Below, one piece after another: positions 1,871 to 61,073 of a stretch of 64,000 nt of DNA. Both the position numbers and the translations under genes were made by a program. The notes below the pieces were generated by a model, which did not search any database, was not told the origin of the DNA, and saw only the letters and a program-made list of their open reading frames with translations. Positions within the stretch are counted from its first letter, which is position 1; each line of letters begins with the position of its first letter. Source of the DNA: an uncultured Clostridia bacterium (GTDB taxonomy: Bacteria > UBA6262 > WVXT01); assembly GCA_964345635.1 (NCBI GenBank), contig CAYFRM010000075.1, forward strand, positions 11,531-75,530, written 5' to 3'.

Positions 1871-2725
1871 TTGAACAGGGAGATTCCACCACAGTTTGAG
1901 AAGGTAGTAATAGGCAAGAGTACCATATTCGTAAAAAGTAAATATAAAGACCCGATATTAAGTCAAAAAGCTACTCTCTTGCGAAAAGTAAACGAACGAG
2001 GATTGTCTCCGGGAGTCAGTTTACTCAAAGGCAGAAACGTAATCCCCTGCATTCCCATCAAGGGCTCTGATGAAAGAATGATCATAAAACATTATGAGCA
2101 CGGAGGATTGTTACGCAAGATAACAAGAGACATCTTATGGGGAAGTTCCCGGCCGTTTCGGGAGCTGGTGGTCCTGGAAAAGGCGTCCCCAAGGGGCGTC
2201 CCTGTCCCCGAGGTACTTGCTGCCAGAGTGGATAAGATTTTTGGCCCATTCTATAGGGGAGAGATAGCATATAAAGAGATTCCTGATGGTAGTAATTTGT
2301 TGGAATATTTGAAGGGGCTTAACCGGAGAACGAGAGAGGAAAAGATATCTGCAAAGAGAAAAATAATTCCTTCCCTGGCAGAAGCCATTAAAAAAATGCA
2401 CGCCGCGGGAATATACCACGGGGACTTGAATATTAAGAACATATTGGTGAGGAACGAAGGGAAGAGAATTAAAGTGTACCTTCTGGACTTCGATTGTTCG
2501 AGGATTAGGGAGAATATTTCACTGAGAGCAAGAATCAAGAACCTGGCTCGTCTCAACAGGTCCTGCGAAAAATGGAGAGCCGAGATAACCGATAGGGACA
2601 AACTCAGATTCTTCCTTTCCTATTTTAAGGGAAATAAATTAATAAAAGCTAATACCCAAAAATATATTCGCCAGTGCTCACGTTTCCACTGGGGGCACAG
2701 GATATACTGGAAATTTTTCGGATAA
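1871..2725 (+). CDS. Lipopolysaccharide kinase family protein (Kdo kinase/WaaP/InaA-like)
   Basis: 284 aa; 'IYHGDLNIKNILV' catalytic-loop motif of LPS kinase family; located in LPS cluster. Confidence 0.6.
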   Translation: MNREIPPQFEKVVIGKSTIFVKSKYKDPILSQKATLLRKVNERGLSPGVSLLKGRNVIPCIPIKGSDERMIIKHYEHGGLLRKITRDILWGSSRPFRELVVLEKASPRGVPVPEVLAARVDKIFGPFYRGEIAYKEIPDGSNLLEYLKGLNRRTREEKISAKRKIIPSLAEAIKKMHAAGIYHGDLNIKNILVRNEGKRIKVYLLDFDCSRIRENISLRARIKNLARLNRSCEKWRAEITDRDKLRFFLSYFKGNKLIKANTQKYIRQCSRFHWGHRIYWKFFG

Positions 2726-2740
2726 TTTATCCAGAATCGC

Positions 2741-2895
2741 AGGGCAATCCCGATGAATCGGGATGGTCGCCCAAAAAGAGAGGGACGGCACGGAGTCCGT
2801 CCCCTACGTGGAAGCAAAGCTTGCGCTTTGCGGCTACAATTTGTGGCAGCAGAGCGATAGCTCTGCATTGTAGGGGCGACACTCTGTGGTCGCCC
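2741..2895 (+). repeat. Repeat family A, copy A1 (1.5-copy tandem composite palindromic element)
   Basis: Modules ATCCCGATGAATCGGGAT hairpin, GGGACGGCACGGAGTCCGTCCCCTAC, GCAAAGCTTGCGCTTTGCGGCTACAA, AGAGCGATAGCTCTGCATTGTAGGGGCGACACTCTGTGGTCGCCC; shared with copy A2. Confidence 0.8.
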
Positions 2896-2914
2896 GCCAG
2901 GATCGGAAATAACG

Positions 2915-3673
2915 ATGAACAGACTTTCAGTAATTATCATTACCTACAACGAAGAAGAAAATATTGGAGACTGTCTGGAAAACGTCAAGTGGTCTGACGA
3001 GATTGTAATTGTTGACGCTTTCAGTAGTGATAGGACTGTGGAGATAGCCCGAGAATTCACCCCCCGGGTATTCCGGAACAGATGGACCGACTTTTCTCAG
3101 CAAAAGAACTTAGCCTTGGGAAAAGCAAGCAACGACTGGGTATTAAGTATAGATGCTGACGAACGCGTTACGCCAGAATTGAAGGAAGAAATCATCAACA
3201 TCCTCAATTCCCCGTCTCCACCGTTCAATGGTTACTATATAGCGAGAAGAAGTCACTATCTGGGAAAATGGATCAAGCATTGTGGATGGTATCCCGACTA
3301 TAAGTTACGCCTGTTTCTGAGAGAAAAAGGGAAATTTAACGAAAGGATGGTGCATGAATCTGTACTGGTAGAAGGCAGGAAAGGCCGCCTTAAGTCCTGC
3401 CTGGACCATTATTCATATAAAAACTTATCCGACCATTTAAGCAAAATTGATAAGTTCACTTCCCTCTCTGCCGGGGAAATGTTTACAAAAGGTAAGAAAG
3501 GGACAACATTCGATTTGCTTTTTCGGCCGCCGGTCAAGTTTATCAATATGTACCTGATAAAGAAAGGTTTTCTGGACGGCATATATGGGTTTATTGTTTG
3601 CATTATCGGGAGCTTCTACGTGTTTATGAAATATCTGAAACTCTGGCTGCTGTCGAGGGAGAGAATCGATTGA
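2915..3673 (+). CDS. Glycosyltransferase family 2
   Basis: 252 aa; 'LSVIIITYNEEENI...VIVDAFSSDRT' GT2 N-terminal signature; DAD-like motif 'IDADE'. Confidence 0.75.
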   Translation: MNRLSVIIITYNEEENIGDCLENVKWSDEIVIVDAFSSDRTVEIAREFTPRVFRNRWTDFSQQKNLALGKASNDWVLSIDADERVTPELKEEIINILNSPSPPFNGYYIARRSHYLGKWIKHCGWYPDYKLRLFLREKGKFNERMVHESVLVEGRKGRLKSCLDHYSYKNLSDHLSKIDKFTSLSAGEMFTKGKKGTTFDLLFRPPVKFINMYLIKKGFLDGIYGFIVCIIGSFYVFMKYLKLWLLSRERID

Positions 3674-4647
3674 GAATAGCCGCTATACTTCCCCATGTTG
3701 AGGTTTTTGGTGGGGTGAGAAGGTATATTGAAATAGGCAACAATTTTGTAAAAAGAGGCCACTCTTTCAAGATATACCACACAAACGGAACTCCTCCCGT
3801 CTGGCTGGAGTTTTTCGGCGAGACAAGACCTTTAAGACAGGTAACTTTAGAAGAAAATGACATTGCCATATCCAGCGACTACTCGGTTCTCGATTATTTG
3901 GAAAGAGCCAATGCCCGGAAAAAAATCTTCTATTGCCTGCGCGAGCACAAGAATAATAGAAAAGTATGCAAAACTAAGGAATTTCTCGTTATGGGCAACT
4001 CTACCGGAATATGCGAGATGGTAAGAAGAAAGTATCGAAGGGAATGCATCGAAGGAATTGGCGGGATAAATGCCGAGCTGTTCCGTCCCGAAGAGGAAAA
4101 CAAGGACAGCCGCCAGATAAGAATCCTCTGTTACGGGAGAATATACAAGAAGAGGAAAGGAATCCAGAAGGCAATCAAGGCGACTGAGCTATTGTACGGG
4201 AGATATCCTTCGCTAAGGCTAATGCTATTTGATACTCCCGTAGGCAGTCCCAGACGAGACGCCCGCCAGATGGTTCACAGCAGAGTCCCCGTTACCTTCT
4301 ACACGTCTATCCCTCAGGAGAGAATGGCCCAGCTTTATTCGCAAGCAGATATTTTCGTTAGCGCGGAGAAGAGAGCGGGATGGAGCAATCCTTGTGCGGA
4401 AGCAATGGCTTGTAAAGTTCCCGTTGTCTGCTCGCCTTCCGGGACCAGGGATTTTGCTGTGGACGGGGAGACGGCTCTGGTTTTTCATTTAAGATGTCCC
4501 TTTCTGATTGCCCAGAGGATAAAGAGATTAATCGAAGACAGAGACCTGAGAGAACGGATAAGAGAGAAAGGTTATAGAAAAATTCAAGAATATACATGGT
4601 CGAATCTTGTGGACAGGTTAGAAAAAGAATTCACGAATCTTCTGTGA
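3670..4647 (+). CDS. Glycosyltransferase (GT1/GT4 fold)
   Basis: TTG start overlapping the upstream TGA stop (TTGA); C-terminal 'EAMACKVPVVCSPSGTRDF' GT-B motif; track ORF 3598 start lies inside upstream gene. Confidence 0.6.
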   Translation: MRIAAILPHVEVFGGVRRYIEIGNNFVKRGHSFKIYHTNGTPPVWLEFFGETRPLRQVTLEENDIAISSDYSVLDYLERANARKKIFYCLREHKNNRKVCKTKEFLVMGNSTGICEMVRRKYRRECIEGIGGINAELFRPEEENKDSRQIRILCYGRIYKKRKGIQKAIKATELLYGRYPSLRLMLFDTPVGSPRRDARQMVHSRVPVTFYTSIPQERMAQLYSQADIFVSAEKRAGWSNPCAEAMACKVPVVCSPSGTRDFAVDGETALVFHLRCPFLIAQRIKRLIEDRDLRERIREKGYRKIQEYTWSNLVDRLEKEFTNLL

Positions 4648-4651
4648 TGGG

Positions 4652-4745
4652 AAAAAAGGGGACAGGTACTTTTTTTCCTTTCACCGTGCGGCGCCCAAAA
4701 CTGACGATCCTCTTTTTTAGAAAAAGTAGCCTGTCCCCTTTTTTG
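4652..4745 (+). repeat. Repeat family C, inverted pair C1 (A6-GGGGACAGGTAC-T7 .. 45 nt .. A5-GTAGCCTGTCCCC-T6); potential bidirectional terminator
   Basis: Two reverse-complementary 24-nt motifs; if paired gives 13-bp GC-rich stem followed by U-run. Confidence 0.75.
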
Positions 4746-6932: not shown

Positions 6933-7008
6933 GTTTTACCCCGTTAGAAATGGATGTTACAAATTCTCCTGAGGGAATTTCTAACGGGGTTTATGCCCGT
7001 AATGTTTT
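6931..7008 (+). repeat. Repeat family B, copy B1 (hairpin element, loop orientation '+')
   Basis: CCCCGTTAGAAAT-[25-nt loop GGATGTTACAAATTCTCCTGAGGGA]-ATTTCTAACGGGG perfect 13-bp stem, flanks ..TTTACC / GTTTATGCCCGTAAT. Confidence 0.85.
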
Positions 7009-7020
7009 CAGGATATCTCG

Positions 7021-7917
7021 ATGAACATCTTCCATTATTATCCCAAAGTTTTGCCGGTGAAAAAGTATGGGGGAACCCAGAGGATAGCTGTTAATTTAAT
7101 GAAAGAACAGGTAAAGATGGGACATAAGGTGTATCTACTGAGCCTGGTGGGCACGCATCTACCTTCTATAAACGTCAAGACGATAAAGAAGCCGATACAA
7201 AATTTTCAAGATTGTGTTCCCGATAACATAGACATTGTCCAATTATATGCTACACCGCGAGAGATTCCTCATAGACCCTATCTGGTAAGGATCGGAGGGA
7301 ATGGCAAGCCGGGGGAAAAGTTTCTTACCAATACAGTATTTGTGAGTGAGAACCACGGTATGCGTCACGGAAGCAGACATTATATCTACAGCGGAATCAA
7401 CCTGGATGATTTTATTTATAGAGAGAAAAAGGAAGACTACTTTCTCTTTCTGGCAAAGGTCTCATGGAAAGTTAAGAATGTGAAGTTAGCCATAAGATTA
7501 GCAAAGGTGATGGGATTCAGACTGATCGTCGCCGGAGGGTGGAGACTTTCTTTCAGAAGAAACATCAAATTCGTAGGAGAAGTGGATGATAAAGAAAAAG
7601 CAGAGCTTCTGGCAGGAGCAAAAGCCCTCATTTTTCCCACAAACTGGCAGGAGCCCATCGGTAACGTGACGCTGGAGGCGATGGCTTCAGGGACACCCGT
7701 AATTACCACTAACCAAGGAGCGATGCCCGAGATAATTACTTCCGGGGTCGGTTTTCGCTGCGATACTTTTGAACAGTTCAAGGAAGCCGTAAACAGAATC
7801 GACCAAATCAGTCCCCGAAAATGTAGAGAGAGAGTGGAAGAGAATTTTACGGCCGAAATTATGGCCCGCAACTACCTAAAAGCGTATGAAAGAATAATTC
7901 AGACGGGCAACCTGTAG
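7021..7917 (+). CDS. Glycosyltransferase (short GT4-like)
   Basis: 298 aa; C-terminal 'NWQEPIGNVTLEAMASGTPVITTNQGAMPEII' GT-B motif. Confidence 0.6.
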   Translation: MNIFHYYPKVLPVKKYGGTQRIAVNLMKEQVKMGHKVYLLSLVGTHLPSINVKTIKKPIQNFQDCVPDNIDIVQLYATPREIPHRPYLVRIGGNGKPGEKFLTNTVFVSENHGMRHGSRHYIYSGINLDDFIYREKKEDYFLFLAKVSWKVKNVKLAIRLAKVMGFRLIVAGGWRLSFRRNIKFVGEVDDKEKAELLAGAKALIFPTNWQEPIGNVTLEAMASGTPVITTNQGAMPEIITSGVGFRCDTFEQFKEAVNRIDQISPRKCRERVEENFTAEIMARNYLKAYERIIQTGNL

Positions 7918-7944
7918 TCTCTTTTCTTTGCTGCTGCGAAAAGA

Positions 7945-8093
7945 AATGTAGCTTGAGAGCGATAGCTCTGCATTGTAGGGGCGACACTCCGTGGTCGCCC
8001 AAAGGAAGGGACGGCACAGAGTCCGTCCCCTACAGACAGGCAAAGCTTACGCTTTGCTGCTACAAAATTGGTTGGCAGTGTAGGGCTTTACGT
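7945..8093 (+). repeat. Repeat family A, copy A2, fused to a family-B flank fragment (8069-8093)
   Basis: Same modules as A1 in permuted order; ends with GTGTAGGGCTTTACGTCCGTAATGG (family B host motif without hairpin). Confidence 0.8.
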
Positions 8094-8124
8094 CCGTAAT
8101 GGCTTTAAGCAGGGGAGAAGAAAG

Positions 8125-9003
8125 TTGAAGGTAAGTGGATTTACTTTTGTAAAAGACGCCATAAGATTTTCGTTTCCCTTGGCGGAATCGATAAAATCGA
8201 TACTGCCCATCTGTGATGAGTTCATAATAAACGTAGGTAAGTCCGATGACGGAACTCTCAACCTGGTCAGGTCGATTAAGAACGGAAAAATCAAGATAAT
8301 CGAAACGGAATGGGATAAAGACTTCAAATATAAGGGCCGAATTCTGGCGCAGCAAACAAACATTGCCCTGGAAAAATGTACGGGCGATTGGTGTTTCTAT
8401 CTGCAAGCTGACGAGGTGGTTCACGAGAAAGACCTGGAGAAGATATCCCGGCGTATGGAGAAGGAACTTCCCCATGAAAACGTGGAAGGGCTCATATTTA
8501 ACTGGATACATTTTTATGGAGACTACTCGACTTTCATAAGCTCATACCACTGGTATCAACGAGAGGTGAGGATAATCAGGAATTTTCGCGGCATATGCTC
8601 CTGGAGTAGTGCCCAGGGTTTCCGGCTGAAGGGAAGGAAATTGAAAGTAAAAGATACCGGCGCTCACGTTTACCATTATGGTTGGGTACGACCTCCCGAA
8701 GTAATGGCCGCAAAGAAACGGTATCACGACTCTCTGCACCACGGTAACGGGTGGGAGAAGGAATATAAGAAAGAAAAATTTGACTACCTCAACCATATTG
8801 ACCCGGCGATACTCAAGAAATATGAGGGAAGCCATCCCGGAGTAATGGAAAAAAGAATCGGCGAATGGCAGGGAGAATTCGATATTGCAAAAAGTACCCA
8901 CAGATTAACATTTAAAGATATAAGAAACAGGATTTCCGATTCCATTGCCCGCAAGACGGGCTGGAGAATAGGAGAGTACAAAAATTTCATTCTGATAAAA
9001 TAG
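8125..9003 (+). CDS. Glycosyltransferase family 2
   Basis: TTG start after AGGGGAG RBS (track ORF start 8068 lies in a repeat); 'FTFVKDAIRFSFPLAESIKS...GKSDDGT' GT2 signature. Confidence 0.6.
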   Translation: MKVSGFTFVKDAIRFSFPLAESIKSILPICDEFIINVGKSDDGTLNLVRSIKNGKIKIIETEWDKDFKYKGRILAQQTNIALEKCTGDWCFYLQADEVVHEKDLEKISRRMEKELPHENVEGLIFNWIHFYGDYSTFISSYHWYQREVRIIRNFRGICSWSSAQGFRLKGRKLKVKDTGAHVYHYGWVRPPEVMAAKKRYHDSLHHGNGWEKEYKKEKFDYLNHIDPAILKKYEGSHPGVMEKRIGEWQGEFDIAKSTHRLTFKDIRNRISDSIARKTGWRIGEYKNFILIK

Positions 9004-14344: not shown

Positions 14345-14428
14345 GTAGTGTAGGGCTTTACCCCGTTAGAAATTCCCTCAGCAGAATTTGTAACAGCCAT
14401 TTCTAACGAGGTTTATGCCCGTAATATT
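14345..14428 (+). repeat. Repeat family B, copy B2 (same flanks as B1, loop reverse-complemented)
   Basis: GTAGTGTAGGGCTTTA-CCCCGTTAGAAAT-[TCCCTCAGCAGAATTTGTAACAGCC]-ATTTCTAACGAGG-TTTATGCCCGTAAT. Confidence 0.85.
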
Positions 14429-16196: not shown

Positions 16197-16281
16197 ACCC
16201 TTTACGGGCATAAATCTCGTTAGAAATGGATGTTACAAATTCTCCTGAGGGAATTTCTAACGGGGTAAAGCCCTGTACCAC
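16197..16281 (+). repeat. Repeat family B, copy B3 (whole element inverted relative to B2)
   Basis: CCCTTTACGGGCATAAA-TCTCGTTAGAAAT-[GGATGTTACAAATTCTCCTGAGGGA]-ATTTCTAACGGGG-TAAAGCCCTGTACC. Confidence 0.85.
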
Positions 16282-31474: not shown

Positions 31475-33185
31475 AGAAAAAATTTCCGAGTTGATCGAAC
31501 AGGGAAAAGAGACGGGAAAACTAACCTATCAGGAGATAAACGAGCAACTTCCCGAAAGTATAGTCGATTCTGACGAAATAGACGATATTCTCAGTAAACT
31601 TGACGAGCTGGGAATCGATGTCGTAGATAAAATTGCCCTGATTGAAAGGCCGGAGAAAGCAGAGGAGGAAAAGGGAGGTTTAGTCCCCATAACTCCCGCT
31701 ACCGAAATAGAGACGAGCGATTCCATAAAGATGTACCTGAACGAGATGGGCAAGGTTTCTCTGCTCAGTCGCGCTCAGGAGATGCATTTAGCCAAGAGCA
31801 TAAAGGACAATGAAAAAAAGCTGAAACAAGTAGCGTTAGAATCACCTATAGCTTTAAGGGAGATAAAGCTAATGGGTAAGATGTTAGAGAAACGCGAAAT
31901 TACTCCCAAGGAGTTGATGCCGCGGGGTCGAAAGACCGGCGCGGCTTTGGCCAGAATGAGGCAGAAGATGAAAAGGGTCGTTCGGGAAATCACCAAAGGC
32001 GAGAGAAAAATCCTGGCCTACGAGAAGAGATTGAAAGCGAAGAGAATTACTCCTAAGTCAAGAGAGAAAGTGGAGAAATTATTGTCCCAGGAAAAGAAGA
32101 AAATTCTGCAGCAAATTCTGGATTTGAACTTGAAAGCAGATAAGATTAAGAAAATAATTATAAAAATCAAACACACGGGTCTAAGATTGAGACAGATAGA
32201 AAAAGAAAGCGCTTACTATCAACGAAAGCTTAAACTTTCCTTTCCTGAGGCTAGGAAACTATGGCGCAGAGCCAGGGCGAGGAAAATGTCCCGGGTGGAA
32301 TTCAAGAAGAAAACGGGAGTAACCATAAAAGAGATCAAGGGAATACACAAGAATTTGAGGAACGTGTCTCAGCGTCTCCTGCAGCTGCAGCGAGCGGTGG
32401 GAATGGACTTCTTGGCGATAAAGGAGCTGCACAAGCAGGTTATGCAACTGGAGTCAGAAATTCTCGACGGTAAACTGAAACTGGTTAAGGCAAACTTGAG
32501 GCTGGTGGTCAGTATTGCCAAGAAACATATCAATCCCAACCTTTCTTTGTTAGATTTGATTCAGGAGGGCAGTATCGGGCTGATGAAAGCGGTTGACAAA
32601 TTCGAATATAAGAGGGGGTTTAAGTTTTCCACGTATGCAACCTGGTGGATCAGGCAGTCTATAAATCGGGCAATAGCCGACCAGGCCCGCACTATTAGAA
32701 TTCCTGTACATATGAAAGAGATTATTAGCAAATTGACCAAAATTGCCCGGCGCTATCGTCAGAAATACGGGCGCGATCCTCTAATTGAAGAATATGCCAA
32801 GGAAATGAAGATGGCGCCGGAAAGAATACGCGCCGTGCTGAAGATAATGCAAGAGCCGATATCCCTGGCTACTCCCATCGGCGAGGAAGAAGAAAGCCAC
32901 CTGGAAGATTTCATCGAAGACCGCGATAACCTGTCCCCGGTGAATATTGCCCTGGATGTTCTACGCCAGAAGGAGATAGAGAAAGTATTGTCTACTTTGA
33001 CCGAACGGGAGGCAAAGATTATCAAATTGAGATTTGGTATCGGAGTGGGATATCCCCGCACTTTAGAAGAGGTAGGCCATATATTTAATGTAACCAGAGA
33101 AAGAGTGAGACAGATCGAGGCAAAAGCGATAAGAAAACTGCGACATCCTTCACGTAGCAAGTATTTGAGAGAATACGTTGAATAA
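31461..33185 (+). CDS. rpoD: RNA polymerase sigma factor RpoD (sigma-70)
   Basis: 574 aa; region 2.4 '[11 protein letters not shown]', region 4.2 '[16 protein letters not shown]'; dnaG-rpoD synteny. Confidence 0.9.
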
Positions 33186-33208
33186 AAAAAGGGGACAGGC
33201 TACTTTTT
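33184..33208 (+). repeat. Repeat family C, solo copy C2 (A7-GGGGACAGGCTAC-T5) immediately after rpoD stop
   Basis: Exact reverse complement of C1b/C5b core. Confidence 0.7.
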
Positions 33209-33254
33209 GACCCAGCAGAGCGAAGCTGTGGCGTGCCATGTGCCAATATATATA

Positions 33255-35457: not shown

Positions 35458-35460
35458 ACA

Positions 35461-35485
35461 AAAAAGGGGACAGGTACTTTTTTGC
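35461..35485 (+). repeat. Repeat family C, solo copy C3 after nrdJ stop
   Basis: AAAAAAGGGGACAGGTACTTTTTTG. Confidence 0.7.
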
Positions 35486-35530
35486 ATTTTTGACGATCCC
35501 GGAGAGTCCAAGTAAAATTCCAGGCACAAT

Positions 35531-42362: not shown

Positions 42363-43568
42363 ATGCACGACCTGATAATTTTAATTGCTGCTCTGGGAAT
42401 TATTCTGATTCTTTTCAAATGGAGACTGAATCTCACTCTGACTATGATAGTAGCGGCACTCTTTCTGGGTATCGCGTACAGGTTTAATTCGACAGAGATT
42501 TCGAAAACTTTTTATTCTGCTTGCGTCTCCAGGGAGACCCTGGAGATTGCCGCCACACTCTTTTTCGTGATCATATTCAACCTTTGTATGACCGCGGCCT
42601 ATACTTTCAAGAAAATAATTAGCAATATGAAAAATATACTGTCGGACATAAGGTGGATTATCGCCGTTGTTCCCGCGGTAATCGGTTTTCTTCCCATGTT
42701 TGGTGGTGCTCTCGTTTCCGCTCCCGTGGTAAAAAAAGTCACCCAGGAAATGGGCATATCAAACGAGCGAAAAACCTTTCTCAATTTTTGGTTTAGACAT
42801 ATCTGGGAGTATACCCTGCCGCTCTACCCGGGAATCCTGGTGGCTGCGGGTATTCTGGGCGTGCCCGTCTACAGGATAATCGCCAGCAATAGCATCCTGA
42901 CTGTGAGTGCAATTGTTATAGGGATAATTTGGGGTACCGGGAGATTGAAACGGAGAACCGAACATTCTCCGGAAGTTTTTTCCGGAAAAGGTCAGGCAAT
43001 TCTCAATTTTCTCTTCAACCTATCGCCAATTATCCTGGTGATGGTTCTGGTTCTCGTTTTCAGGTTAAAAGTTTTATACGCTCTCATTGCGGCAATAATG
43101 TTCACGATCATCGCCAATAAGATTCCCCTTAGAAAAATTTTGCGCACTGTGAAAGAAGAGAAGTACGGGATGATTCTTATGGTCTTTGCCATTATGATTT
43201 TCAAGGGAATGTTGACAGCCACAGGGATAATAGAGCGCCTGCCTCTTTTCTTTAAGAGTGCGGGCATTCCCCGGTACCTGGTTATTTCTTTTCTTCCTTT
43301 CATTGCGGGTTTTTTAACGGGAATGACCATGGCCGCAGTGGGCATCACTTTCCCGGTTATTCTGCCCCTTTTTGATGGTAAGTTATCACTTATGACTTTT
43401 TCCTTTATGTGTGGATTTGCCGGGGTCTTGTTGACACCCGTCCACTTTTGCCTGGCGTTAACCAGAGAATATTTCCGGGCTGACTGGCTGAAACTTTATC
43501 GCAAAGAATTGATTCTTCCGGTATTCCTGATGATAGTAATCGGACTTATTTATACTGTGATAGTGTAG
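42363..43568 (+). CDS. Polytopic integral membrane protein (DUF401-like, putative transporter)
   Basis: About 400 aa, 10 or more hydrophobic segments; start chosen at 'MHDLIIL' after terminator/promoter. Confidence 0.45.
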   Translation: MHDLIILIAALGIILILFKWRLNLTLTMIVAALFLGIAYRFNSTEISKTFYSACVSRETLEIAATLFFVIIFNLCMTAAYTFKKIISNMKNILSDIRWIIAVVPAVIGFLPMFGGALVSAPVVKKVTQEMGISNERKTFLNFWFRHIWEYTLPLYPGILVAAGILGVPVYRIIASNSILTVSAIVIGIIWGTGRLKRRTEHSPEVFSGKGQAILNFLFNLSPIILVMVLVLVFRLKVLYALIAAIMFTIIANKIPLRKILRTVKEEKYGMILMVFAIMIFKGMLTATGIIERLPLFFKSAGIPRYLVISFLPFIAGFLTGMTMAAVGITFPVILPLFDGKLSLMTFSFMCGFAGVLLTPVHFCLALTREYFRADWLKLYRKELILPVFLMIVIGLIYTVIV

Positions 43569-43630
43569 GTGTAGGGGCGGCACTCCGTGGCCGCCCAGGG
43601 AAGGGACGGCACAGAGTCCGCCCCCTGCAG
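43564..43630 (+). repeat. Repeat family A, compact copy A3
   Basis: GTAGGGGCGGCACTCCGTGGCCGCCC..GGGACGGCACAGAGTCCGCCCCCTGCAG; two internal 7-bp-stem hairpins inside an outer GTAG/CTAC-type closing stem. Confidence 0.8.
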
Positions 43631-49141: not shown

Positions 49142-49245
49142 TGTAGTGTAGGGGCGGCGCTCCGTGGCCGCCCAGAGTAAGGGACGGCACAGAGTCCGTC
49201 CCCTACACATAGACAAAATTGACACACTTTGCTGTTACATTCTTG
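49142..49245 (+). repeat. Repeat family A, compact copy A4 plus degenerate CTTTGCTG(T/C)TACA module
   Basis: TGTAGTGTAGGGGCGGCGCTCCGTGGCCGCCC..GGGACGGCACAGAGTCCGTCCCCTACA; downstream CACTTTGCTGTTACAT resembles A1/A2 tail. Confidence 0.8.
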
Positions 49246-50335: not shown

Positions 50336-50395
50336 AACGCCAATGCAGAGCGACAGTTCCGCGTTATGATGTAGCTGCAGAGCGAAGCTCTGCTT

Positions 50396-50465
50396 CGATG
50401 TAGGTAGTGTAGGGCTTTATGCCCGTCCCCATTAATCGGGACGCCCATAAAGGGCTACACTACTC
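50396..50465 (+). repeat. Family B host-motif copy without hairpin insert (B4), flanked by GCAGAGCGAAGCTCTGC hairpin
   Basis: GTAGGTAGTGTAGGGCTTTATGCCCGTCCCC..GGGACGCCCATAAAGGGCTACACTAC imperfect long inverted repeat; upstream 50369-50385 GCAGAGC-gaa-GCTCTGC. Confidence 0.7.
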
Positions 50466-55505: not shown

Positions 55506-55564
55506 CTTTCATTTATGGGGTCGTTTGAATTGTAGTCGCTCCCATTCAAGGGAGCGCATATATA

Positions 55565-55860
55565 GGCTTGAAGTGAACCGGATGGTTGCTCCGATGTTTA
55601 TCGGAGAGGAAAGTCCGAACTCCACAGGGCGGAGTGTTCCGTGTAAACGGAAGGGGAGTAATCCTACGGAAAGTGGCACAGAAACCAGGTACAGGTAATG
55701 CTGTAGTGAAAAGGCTAAACCCCACTCGGAGCAAGACCGAATAGCAGAGAAGAGACGGCCCGTCTCGTTACTACTCTACGGGTTGGTCGCTCAGATAAAT
55801 AACCATCGTTCCGATTTATAGTCGGAATACAGGATTCGGCTTACAGGTTCATTTCAAGCC
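55565..55860 (+). ncRNA. rnpB: RNase P RNA (bacterial type A), compact (about 296 nt)
   Basis: P1 pairing GGCTTGAAGTGAACC/GGTTCATTTCAAGCC; P4 'GAGGAAAGTCCGAACTCCACAGGGC'; 'GTGAAAAGGCTAAACCCCAC', 'AATAG', 3' 'ACAGGATTCGGCTTACAG' match universally conserved regions; followed by T-run. Confidence 0.8.
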
Positions 55861-59506: not shown

Positions 59507-59690
59507 TACTGCGAAGCAGGCAGTAGCAGGCCAGTAGTCGCAGGCTCAAGCCTGCGTAGCTTCCCGGAAAAGCAGGATCCCTCCCTTCAACGCCCACAAA
59601 ATATTGCCGAAAATACTCAAGTAGACAGTTTTAATTGACAAATTTTGGTTCTTTTGCTATTCTATGTTATAGCGACGATAGGAGGAACGA

Positions 59691-60377: not shown

Positions 60378-61059
60378 GGGAAATGATTTCATAGATTTAG
60401 ACACTCTTTTCGATTTTACCGATAACAGTAAAGCCGAAATCTATCTACCGAAGATATACTGCTCCACGATTAAAAGTATCGTAGCCAATGCTTTAACCAT
60501 AAAATTGGACCTTATCATTTTTGATAACGGCTATAGCAAGTGTGACAATGGCAGATTTGTTAGTGAAATTCTCAAGCGTGAGCTTGATGTGCCTATAATT
60601 ACCACTCAAAATAACGCTACTCGCAGGCACCCTCAACCGATATGCGAAAGTGGTCTGGCACTGAGAAAGAAATTTGACTTGATAGTGGACAGTGTCGTCA
60701 AGGACGTTGATAAGTCAAAATTGAAACGCGCCGAGCCGGATTATGGCTTCTGGGGAGTTCCTCCCAATGATTTCAGCATACTTGATCTGTTTCCTGAGAA
60801 AACCCACGTTTTCGGGTGGGCAAGGTGTATGGAGGCAAAAGTTCCCGCGGACCTGGAATTGGAAATGTTGGTAAGGGAGGACCTGCCCACGGTATTCTAC
60901 GCCCAGGCTTTCTGCAGCAAGAACTCCTTAGCCAGGTATCTGGCAAAGAAACATAACGGACTCTATGTTGAGGTTGATGACGTTCTTGATAATTCCGTAA
61001 AACGCAAAATCGAAGCTTACCTCTTACTAAACAGGAAAAAGGGACAGGTACTTTTTTGA
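60325..61059 (+). CDS. Hypothetical protein (possibly partner/DUF2229-like component of the downstream ATPase)
   Basis: 244 aa; GGGGAG RBS; overlaps yhhQ end by 53 nt; C-terminus encodes repeat-C motif. Confidence 0.4.
   Translation: MKIGIVGVPPQEILDKYKGNDFIDLDTLFDFTDNSKAEIYLPKIYCSTIKSIVANALTIKLDLIIFDNGYSKCDNGRFVSEILKRELDVPIITTQNNATRRHPQPICESGLALRKKFDLIVDSVVKDVDKSKLKRAEPDYGFWGVPPNDFSILDLFPEKTHVFGWARCMEAKVPADLELEMLVREDLPTVFYAQAFCSKNSLARYLAKKHNGLYVEVDDVLDNSVKRKIEAYLLLNRKKGQVLF
61036..61057 (+). repeat. Repeat family C, solo copy C4 forming the last 7 codons and stop of CDS 60325-61059
   Basis: AAAAAGGGACAGGTACTTTTTTGA encodes ..KKGQVLF*. Confidence 0.65.
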
Positions 61060-61073
61060 CGGAGTGAGGCGAT

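Follow-up and report, generated by a model that had tools for sequence, protein, structure and literature searches.

GTAG-tagged REP clusters of two interleaved families between the genes of an uncultured Clostridia bacterium, and their probable link to RAYT transposases

The GTAG head of the repetitive extragenic palindromes (REPs) that have been studied serves as a tag or guide sequence for the domesticated transposase that moves these short stretches of DNA. In Escherichia coli it stands 5' of the palindrome; units of Y and Z type are combined as inverted heterodimers and in tandem (bacterial interspersed mosaic elements, BIMEs), the elements are extragenic and lie inside operons, and the gene of the Y1/HUH transposase TnpA-REP (REP-associated tyrosine transposase, RAYT; YafM; structure 4ER8) is flanked by the repeats. 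In Pseudomonas, REPINs (REP doublets forming hairpins) contain two inverted REPs per unit, flank a RAYT gene and occur as dispersed, polymorphic copies (Bertels and Rainey, 2011; PMC3116915). The GTAG REP superfamily is characterized by an unpaired GTAG, stems of 6-9 bp with complementary variation, a preference for head-out (HH) dimers and for heterodimers, the use of the TAG of GTAG as a stop codon, and several families per genome with mixed-family dimers (Di Nocera et al., 2013; PMC3733652). Its members were reported from Proteobacteria, Cyanobacteria, Chloroflexi and the Planctomycetes-Verrucomicrobia-Chlamydiae (PVC) group, with HH dimers separated by 1-2 bp in Opitutus terrae and hybrid dimers in S. 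maltophilia among the examples, and REPtrons were also described (PMC3733652). In this study, a stretch of 64,000 nt from an uncultured Clostridia bacterium (contig CAYFRM010000075.1, positions 11,531 to 75,530, assembly GCA_964345635.1; hereafter the window) was analyzed. It contains four intergenic repeat sites, A1 to A4. An initial annotation of the letters alone had called these repeats REP/BIME-like, and this holds: they possess a GTAG tag, a short perfect palindrome, an inverted-pair arrangement and an extragenic location, and a REP-flanked RAYT gene is present in a sister genome. We consider it highly probable that the four sites are GTAG-tagged REP clusters of BIME/REPIN-like type, composed of two interleaved families and presumably moved by a RAYT.

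The sites lie at 2741-2895 (A1), 7945-8093 (A2), 43564-43630 (A3) and 49142-49245 (A4), as originally located. The module sequences GGGACGGCACRGAGTCCGTCCCCTAC and GTAGGGGCGRCRCTCYGTGGYCGCCC gave four matches each with at most three mismatches, as against 0.00 expected in shuffled sequence. A repeat search recovered a four-copy family of 76 nt and, in addition, a 54-nt block common to A1 and A2, the two copies of which are 91% identical. The hairpins that had been described as distinct modules were also found, but they are not separate entities. A generic pattern, GTAGGGGNNNNRCTCYGTGNNNNCCC, matched eight times in the window, four times on each strand (0.01 expected by chance), and both former hairpin modules are one 26-nt unit, here termed REP1, in opposite orientations. 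REP1 reads GTAGGGG-nnnn-RCTCYGTG-nnnn-CCC, with an unpaired GTAG head, a perfect 7-bp stem starting with GGG and an 8-nt loop (RCTCYGTG); the stem core is CGAC or CGGC in Y units and ACGG in Z units. At each window site a Y unit on the + strand stands opposite a Z unit on the - strand, with 6-9 nt between them and the GTAG heads pointing outward. A second family, REP2, accounts for the former module C and for module A in its 5' half; it has the head GTAGC, a stem of 6-7 bp (GCAAAGC or GCAGAGC) and a loop of 2-4 nt. The basic element is thus a head-out heterodimer of REP1-Y and inverted REP1-Z, often nested within a head-out pair of REP2 units, and the full order is REP2 > REP1-Y > spacer < REP1-Z < REP2. 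Site A2 follows it as REP2(+) Y(+) Z(-) REP2(-); A1, which amounts to a tandem of one and a half composites, has the order variant Y(+), Z(-) REP2(-) REP2(+) Y(+). The tandem and nested arrangement of two REP families accounts for the difference in module order between A1 and A2 that had been taken for circular permutation.

In total, 16 units were identified at five sites of the window. The first unit of A1 (2739-2772, + strand; GCAGGGCA-ATCCCGATGAATCGGGAT-GGTCGCCC) had been regarded as a truncated module; it is instead a full-length, slightly decayed REP1 variant with the head GCAG, the loop of which is replaced by a nested small hairpin, ATCCCGAT-GA-ATCGGGAT, and intact copies (GTAGGGGCGATCCCGATATATCGGGATGGTCGCCC) are present in L058 and L122 (L numbers denote the loci compared with the window). 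It is followed by the Z unit GTAGGGGACGGACTCCGTGCCGTCCC (2782-2807, - strand), matched by the pattern; the REP2 unit GTAGCCGCAAAGCGCAAGCTTTGC (2814-2837, -), found in a search for GTAG hairpins and identical with the former module C; a further REP2 unit, GTGGCAGCAGAGCGATAGCTCTGC, with the head GTGG (2843-2866, +), which corresponds to the 5' half of the former module A and lies in the 54-nt block; and a Y unit with the CGAC stem (2870-2895, +), which has no Z partner and forms the left half of the second tandem composite. Site A2 is made up of the REP2 unit GTAGCTTGAGAGCGATAGCTCTGC (7948-7971, +), again from the 54-nt block, a CGAC-type Y unit (7975-8000, +) and a Z unit (8008-8033, -), both recovered by pattern and fold, and the REP2 unit GTAGCAGCAAAGCGTAAGCTTTGC (8040-8063, -; hairpin search); a family-B half unit, GCAGTGTAGGGCTTTACGTCCGT (8075-8097, +), abuts the composite. 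At A3, a Y unit with the CGGC stem (43571-43596, +) is paired with a decayed Z unit (43603-43628, -) that has the head GCAG and one stem change; just 5' of this Y unit is a degenerate GTAG head that contains the TAG stop codon (43566-43568) of the upstream gene. Site A4 contains a CGGC-type Y unit (49148-49173, +) and a Z unit (49181-49206, -). Both A3 and A4 had been described as compact forms reduced to the hairpin modules, which is not correct for A4: a decayed REP2 unit, ACAAAATTGACACACTTTGCTGTTAC (49213-49238, -), formerly module C, was recognized there by comparison with composites in related loci. The fifth site, missed before, is a solo REP2 unit of GTAGC type, GTAGCTGCAGAGCGAAGCTCTGC (50371-50393, +), which adjoins a family-B palindrome (50404-50463).

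All window copies are intergenic; as had been noted, each follows a stop codon, precedes the next start and is oriented as transcription runs, all flanking genes being on the + strand, as is essentially every credible gene of the window. The elements are situated 19-60 nt upstream of start codons. The flanking gene pairs are functionally unrelated and encode a lipopolysaccharide (LPS)-kinase family protein and a glycosyltransferase of family GT2, GT1 and GT2 glycosyltransferases, DUF401 and Ldh_2 proteins, and an acyl-CoA synthetase-like and a DRTGG protein. Two open reading frames (ORFs) that had been named as by-products of the repeats, 2674-2997 (+) and 2620-2940 (-), are present; they overlap both the repeats and real genes and are plausibly spurious. 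No match to the Rfam 15 covariance models was obtained at gathering thresholds in the window, nor at E<=1 in the region 7900-8150, and a known RNA family was ruled out on this basis. CRISPR was ruled out as well, since there are no regular spacers.

The units are numerous beyond the window. A scan of contigs at one genome per species with the generic unit pattern gave listed matches mostly from Pyrinomonadaceae (Acidobacteriota), and a metagenome scan with the exact Z unit returned at least 118 further stretches. The census set comprised 125 low-GC loci (0.9 Mb) drawn from several related populations, and the window itself represents the same strain as two contigs of metagenome GCA_012974985.1. 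In these loci 320 REP1 units were counted, 281 of which have Watson-Crick pairs at 7/7 stem positions. They form 166 clusters, of which 86 are simple head-out pairs whose spacers are 4-8 nt long (mode 7 nt, 59 pairs; 4 nt, 20 pairs; 6 nt, 12 pairs); units also occur singly, in head-to-tail arrays and in arrays of up to five units. Doublets with distinct flanks numbered 83 in related metagenome contigs. Among 78 doublets with complete flanks, REP2 units stand on both sides in 23, on one side in 25 and on neither in 30. Called ORFs leave 63 of 86 doublets clear, and the rest overlap first-possible-start calls or spurious ORFs. When all stem types were included, the related low-GC loci gave 696 GTAG-headed perfect hairpins and the shuffled sequence 25, so that several REP sub-families are abundant in the lineage. 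Window-type Y-Z doublets and composites are carried by low-GC bins that bear the label 'uncultured Clostridia bacterium' (L050, L058, L087, L102 and L108). The sister bin GCA_964403285.1 carries the same NCBI label; the window encodes a protein of the LPS-kinase family, and its RpoD has its nearest named relatives, at 55-57% identity, in Elusimicrobiota. In Pyrinomonadaceae, the exact 26-mer of the A3 Y unit (43571-43596) is the commonest unit among the matches listed, and the stems vary in a compensatory manner (CGGC/GCCG, TGGC/GCCA, CGGA/TCCG). Perfect-stem REP1 units were also detected in the Chloroflexota groups Dehalococcoidia and Anaerolineales and in metagenome-assembled genomes (MAGs) of gut Clostridia and Bacilli, some with 26-28% GC. 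A literature search with the unit sequences gave chance matches only.

Several further arrangements were seen among these loci. GC-rich, perfect-stem hairpins of REP1 type (GTAGGGGCGGAACTCCGTGTCCGCCC) lie in AT-rich intergenic DNA of gut MAGs of 26-28% GC (L112, 3590-3705; L082, 2204-2229), with the same head and loop as the units of the window and of Pyrinomonadaceae. A conserved insert of about 60 nt, GACGGCACCATAAATGGTGCCCGACCAGTGGYTGGTCGGTCGCCCTTCAGGGTGA..., separates Y and Z in L193 (1076-1194), L188 (5521-5639) and L162 (3115-3233); it is built of further small hairpins and represents a third level of nesting. In a gut Clostridiales bin of 61% GC (L051, 1-960), a dense REP1-like array gives rise to long, repetitive spurious ORFs in which the peptide GEGLAPPAGFRNFFGQRWG is repeated.

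The sites differ between close relatives. Between loci whose flanks share 80-95% identity, REP-bearing gaps vary by tens to hundreds of bases. At one intergenic spot L135 has no element, L164 has REP2-Z-Y and L199 has another REP family; further orthologous sites are empty in L135, L210 and L179. Such empty, filled and differently filled sites suggest mobility within the lineage. The initial annotation had proposed that an absence of further copies together with conserved orthologous sites would speak for gene-specific regulatory sites; instead, 83 doublets were found elsewhere and the sites are polymorphic, some of them empty. It is hardly credible, then, that the clusters are operators, attenuators or riboswitch-like leaders sharing their sequence by chance: the distance of 19-60 nt to the start codons would suit such a function, but the neighboring genes have no functional relation, the distinct-flank copies and empty orthologous sites contradict it, and Rfam gave no match. 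Miniature inverted-repeat transposable elements (MITEs) of an insertion sequence of DDE type, with terminal inverted repeats and target-site duplications, are likewise very improbable. The composite is bounded by inverted ends, GTAGC...GCTAC, over about 120 nt, as a MITE would be, but comparison of filled and empty sites revealed no target-site duplication, the units are autonomous GTAG hairpins of 23-26 nt which also occur alone and head to tail, and the only transposase adjoining such units is a Y1/HUH RAYT. At the empty L135 site, a single example, CTAC is found at the junction.

The covariation analysis that had been recommended to examine the hairpins was carried out on 61 aligned doublets, and each 7-bp unit hairpin shows compensatory change. 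In the two-hairpin model 98.7% of the cells are paired, and three stem pairs have changes on both sides (41 cells), a result matched in 0/500 shuffles; slid controls collapse. The minimum-energy fold of the RNA is a single long Y:Z hairpin (-36 to -37 kcal/mol), for which no compensatory change was detected and two of whose pairs are disrupted, one in 28 and the other in 18 of 60 sequences. The unit hairpin is therefore what is conserved. Pseudomonas REPINs are described as able to form one long hairpin (PMC3116915), whereas for window-type doublets covariation supports two separate hairpins. Within the alignment the head and loop are fixed and the stem core is free to vary: G1, T2 and A3 never differ, conservation of G4 is at least 90%, and a mirror CTAC stands at the far end. 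Group 3 TnpA-REP enzymes read the loop and the GTAG of perfect palindromes (Corneloup et al., 2021; PMC8266576), and the Group 3 REPs of Stenotrophomonas and Marinomonas, which are also perfect palindromes, fit the combination of fixed head and loop with a covarying stem. Their loops are unrelated in length and sequence. As DNA, single units fold at -7.8 to -8.2 kcal/mol (z-scores -3.0 to -4.2). The composite in single-stranded DNA forms four hairpins in which the GTAG and CTAC heads pair as closing stems (-30.8 kcal/mol, z = -5.4).

A RAYT gene associated with these repeats was identified in the related loci. The region 2397-2930 of L196, located between argG and argH, encodes a 177-aa protein. 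With NCBIfam REP_Tyr_transpos this protein reaches 85 bits, the cut-off being 80, and with Pfam Y1_Tnp 31 bits; in an alignment with the E. coli TnpA-REP (4ER8) its HUH motif and the YxxxNPVKH tyrosine are in register. The gene has GGAGTAGC-headed REP2 units on both sides, and a full composite lies 3 kb away on the same contig. Homologs in L240, L243, L244, L246 and L248, between argG and argH or between mraY and murD, are likewise flanked by GGAGTAGC-headed REP2 units. The argG-argH gap contains the RAYT gene and REP2 doublets in L196 (2258-3073) and a REP2-Y-Z-REP2 composite in the sister locus L192 (9440-9650), the flanks being 90-98% identical; the RAYT gene itself has therefore been gained or lost at a REP site. 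In L248, which corresponds to contig CAYOFG010000028.1 of the bin GCA_964403285.1, the RAYT gene has REP2 doublets on both sides. The same bin also includes L058 and L087, with window-type elements, and an RpoD 93% identical to that of the window. It follows that the window lineage has a RAYT flanked by the outer family-A modules. REP1 heterodimers with about 45-65 nt of spacer, including the exact 26-mer of 43571-43596, stand on either side of RAYT genes (95-99 bits) in Pyrinomonadaceae, and the family is annotated by the Joint Genome Institute (JGI) as 'REP element-mobilizing transposase RayT'; the best 120 homologs of the Pyrinomonadaceae RAYT are same-family orthologs. As a separate observation, a RAYT gene occupies 4001-4594 between mraY and murD, in a cell-division and cell-wall cluster, in five contigs of a related low-GC group that come from different samples (L240, L241, L242, L243 and L246); this position looks vertically kept and domesticated.

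By analogy with the known systems, the HUH/Y1 transposase would use the GTAG tag and the loop to bind the hairpin folded from single-stranded DNA, cut beside the hairpin and re-insert the unit at another site. Insertion beside existing GTAG/CTAC tags would build nested and tandem clusters such as A1 and A2. The mover of REP1 in the window lineage may also be a RAYT, on the indirect link provided by the Pyrinomonadaceae RAYTs. Several points weigh against this reading. There is no RAYT gene inside the 64-kb window, and no REP1-flanked RAYT was found in the low-GC lineage, where the sole RAYT clade found is flanked by REP2. A tblastn search of three RAYTs against all 240 loci returned L196 as the sole locus, and the homologs of its RAYT are flanked by REP2 or by unrelated repeats, none of them being close to the Pyrinomonadaceae type. 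Transposition itself is deduced from the polymorphism. The linkers between REP2 and REP1 vary among copies even inside the window (CATT/GTGGAA vs CATT/AGACAG), so that the composite need not be a recently transposed unit. The census is biased by the requirement for an exact Z unit, which makes the invariance of Z an artefact of ascertainment, and genes in the census loci were called by a longest-ORF heuristic.

The doublets have a nearly fixed orientation. The Y-to-Z direction agrees with that of co-directional flanking genes in 58 cases and is opposed in one, doublets start at a median of 33 nt past the upstream stop codon, and in 4 of 68 cases that stop codon is formed by the TAG within the GTAG head. 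Spacers are purine-rich on the sense strand (AAAGGAA and similar), while the antisense strand presents its first hairpin followed by a TTCCTTT-like tail. The Z unit of A1 (2804-2781) was flagged as terminator-like on the - strand only; no terminator was flagged inside the elements on the sense (+) strand, and an intrinsic terminator acting in the sense direction was ruled out on these grounds. If RAYT-moved elements inside operons are co-transcribed, the only orientation tolerated would be the one that places no hairpin-plus-U tract on the mRNA, which would explain why Y comes first along transcription; the reverse orientation would be polar and would be removed by selection.

A somewhat doubtful alternative is that the elements are kept mainly for a task at the RNA level, either as intercistronic hairpins that shield the upstream mRNA against 3' exonucleases or fix processing sites, or as terminators for antisense transcripts, and that mobility is secondary. 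REPs have been reported as plausibly transcribed and acting as RNA elements (PMC3733652), and such a role would be compatible, as an additional function, with clusters moved by a RAYT. The co-orientation of 58:1, the short distance after the upstream stop codon and the hairpin with a T-rich tail on the antisense strand agree with it. The element RNAs fold with high stability (-36 to -57 kcal/mol; z-scores from -3.7 to -5.7), and stem mismatches are retained as G.U pairs in the sense RNA in 24 cases, as against 10 that form G.U only in the antisense RNA. This 24:10 bias is, however, small and confounded with strand-biased mutation. No Rfam family was matched, and close relatives with the same flanking genes have the same sites empty or filled with unrelated REPs, so no copy is needed by its operon. 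The orientation bias could also come from strand-specific insertion, as the genes run nearly all one way (715 vs 55 ORFs by strand in related loci).

Another tentative explanation, as doubtful as the last, attributes the orientation to replication: insertion would occur on the lagging-strand template, as in the IS200/IS605 family, and would coincide with gene direction. Relatives in that family target the lagging-strand template (PMC6006769). The gene-strand bias of 715:55 is consistent with this, as is the window, in which GC skew is positive throughout and essentially all genes are on the + strand. On the other hand, 58:1 exceeds what gene-strand bias would give if some of the flanking genes were head-on, and in the strand-switch loci L138, L194, L188 and L157 the doublet follows the local genes; such loci are few, and in none of them do both blocks contain doublets, the only locus with doublets in two opposed gene blocks being the 1.5-kb L160.

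Compared with the described systems, the clusters match in their essentials the GTAG REPs organized as head-out heterodimers or BIME-like clusters with a RAYT (PMC3733652; PMC3116915; PMC8266576; PMC2817692). The differences are of degree only: a perfect 7-bp stem with an 8-nt loop, very short spacers, regular nesting, a near-absolute orientation and hosts not listed before. Units of E. coli are imperfect palindromes of 29-37 nt with a required bulge and with sites for integration host factor (IHF) in the linkers, whereas those of the window have perfect 7-bp stems, a conserved 8-nt loop and spacers of 4-8 nt, and two different REP families are nested within one composite. Unlike in REPINs, the partners are always of different stem types, and the 240 loci yielded no REP1-flanked RAYT from the low-GC lineage. 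The RCTCYGTG loop is longer than the 2-3-nt loops typical in PMC3733652, and both the window lineage and Pyrinomonadaceae are outside the phyla named there. Four sequence fragments had no match in the supplementary text of PMC3733652; the units may nonetheless be identical with one of its 24 families. The ends of IS200/IS605 elements are similar in that a Y1 HUH transposase recognizes their subterminal hairpins in single-stranded DNA, the guide being a 5' tetranucleotide; however, the window hairpins are not the ends of a gene-carrying insertion sequence, and the RAYT scores 21.8 bits on transpos_IS200 against a cut-off of 55.

Other small repeats were noted in the window. Family B had been thought to derive with family A from a common host motif; a motif is indeed shared, but it is the GTAG(GG) head and not a host motif. 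The complete family-B element at 50404-50463 is a long imperfect palindrome, GTAGTGTAGGGCTTTATGCCCGTCCC-CATTAAT-CGGGACGCCCATAAAGGGCTACACTAC, and forms a head-out GTAG doublet with a small inner hairpin like that of the A1 variant unit. At 6942-7001, 14364-14423 and 16218-16277, the two halves of a family-B hairpin (GGGCTTTACCC ... GGGGTTTATGCCCGTA) enclose a palindromic element of 45 nt, CGTTAGAAAT-(25 nt)-ATTTCTAACG; in the copy at 14364 the inner 25 nt are reversed, and the element is thus found in both orientations. Two more perfect hairpins with a GTAG head but different stems, GTAGTCGCTCCCATTCAAGGGAGCG and GTAGTCGCAGGCTCAAGCCTGCG, are located at 55532-55556, just upstream of the RNase P RNA gene (55570-55859), and at 59534-59556. 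A 24-nt motif, AAAAAAGGGGACAGG(C)TACTTTTTT, occurs at 4652-4681, 33185-33214, 35460-35489 and 61034-61063, directly 3' of the stop codons of four unrelated genes including rpoD and nrdJ. Its conserved core, GGGGACAGGTAC, is bordered by an A-run and a T-run; the motif has no GC hairpin and is unlike the REP families.

The RAYT-moved clusters proposed here leave current views of REPs standing and add an uncultured sediment lineage and Pyrinomonadaceae to the hosts of REP/RAYT systems. For annotation, the clusters account for spurious ORFs and for many contig breaks in assemblies from this lineage, many RAYT contigs being only about 900 nt long; they mark operon-internal gaps and are not to be taken for promoters or terminators. 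The findings raise the questions of how one 26-nt hairpin keeps its head and loop across phyla, whether a RAYT flanked by one REP family can carry a second family as a passenger, and whether the strict orientation is set by transcription or by replication. On one unlikely reading, REP1 would be one ancient class of REP, its head and loop kept constant across phyla, which in the window lineage may have been captured as an orientation-locked intercistronic element that lets sense transcription pass, stops antisense transcription or stabilizes the upstream mRNA, and rides in REP2 doublets movable by the only RAYT detected in the lineage.

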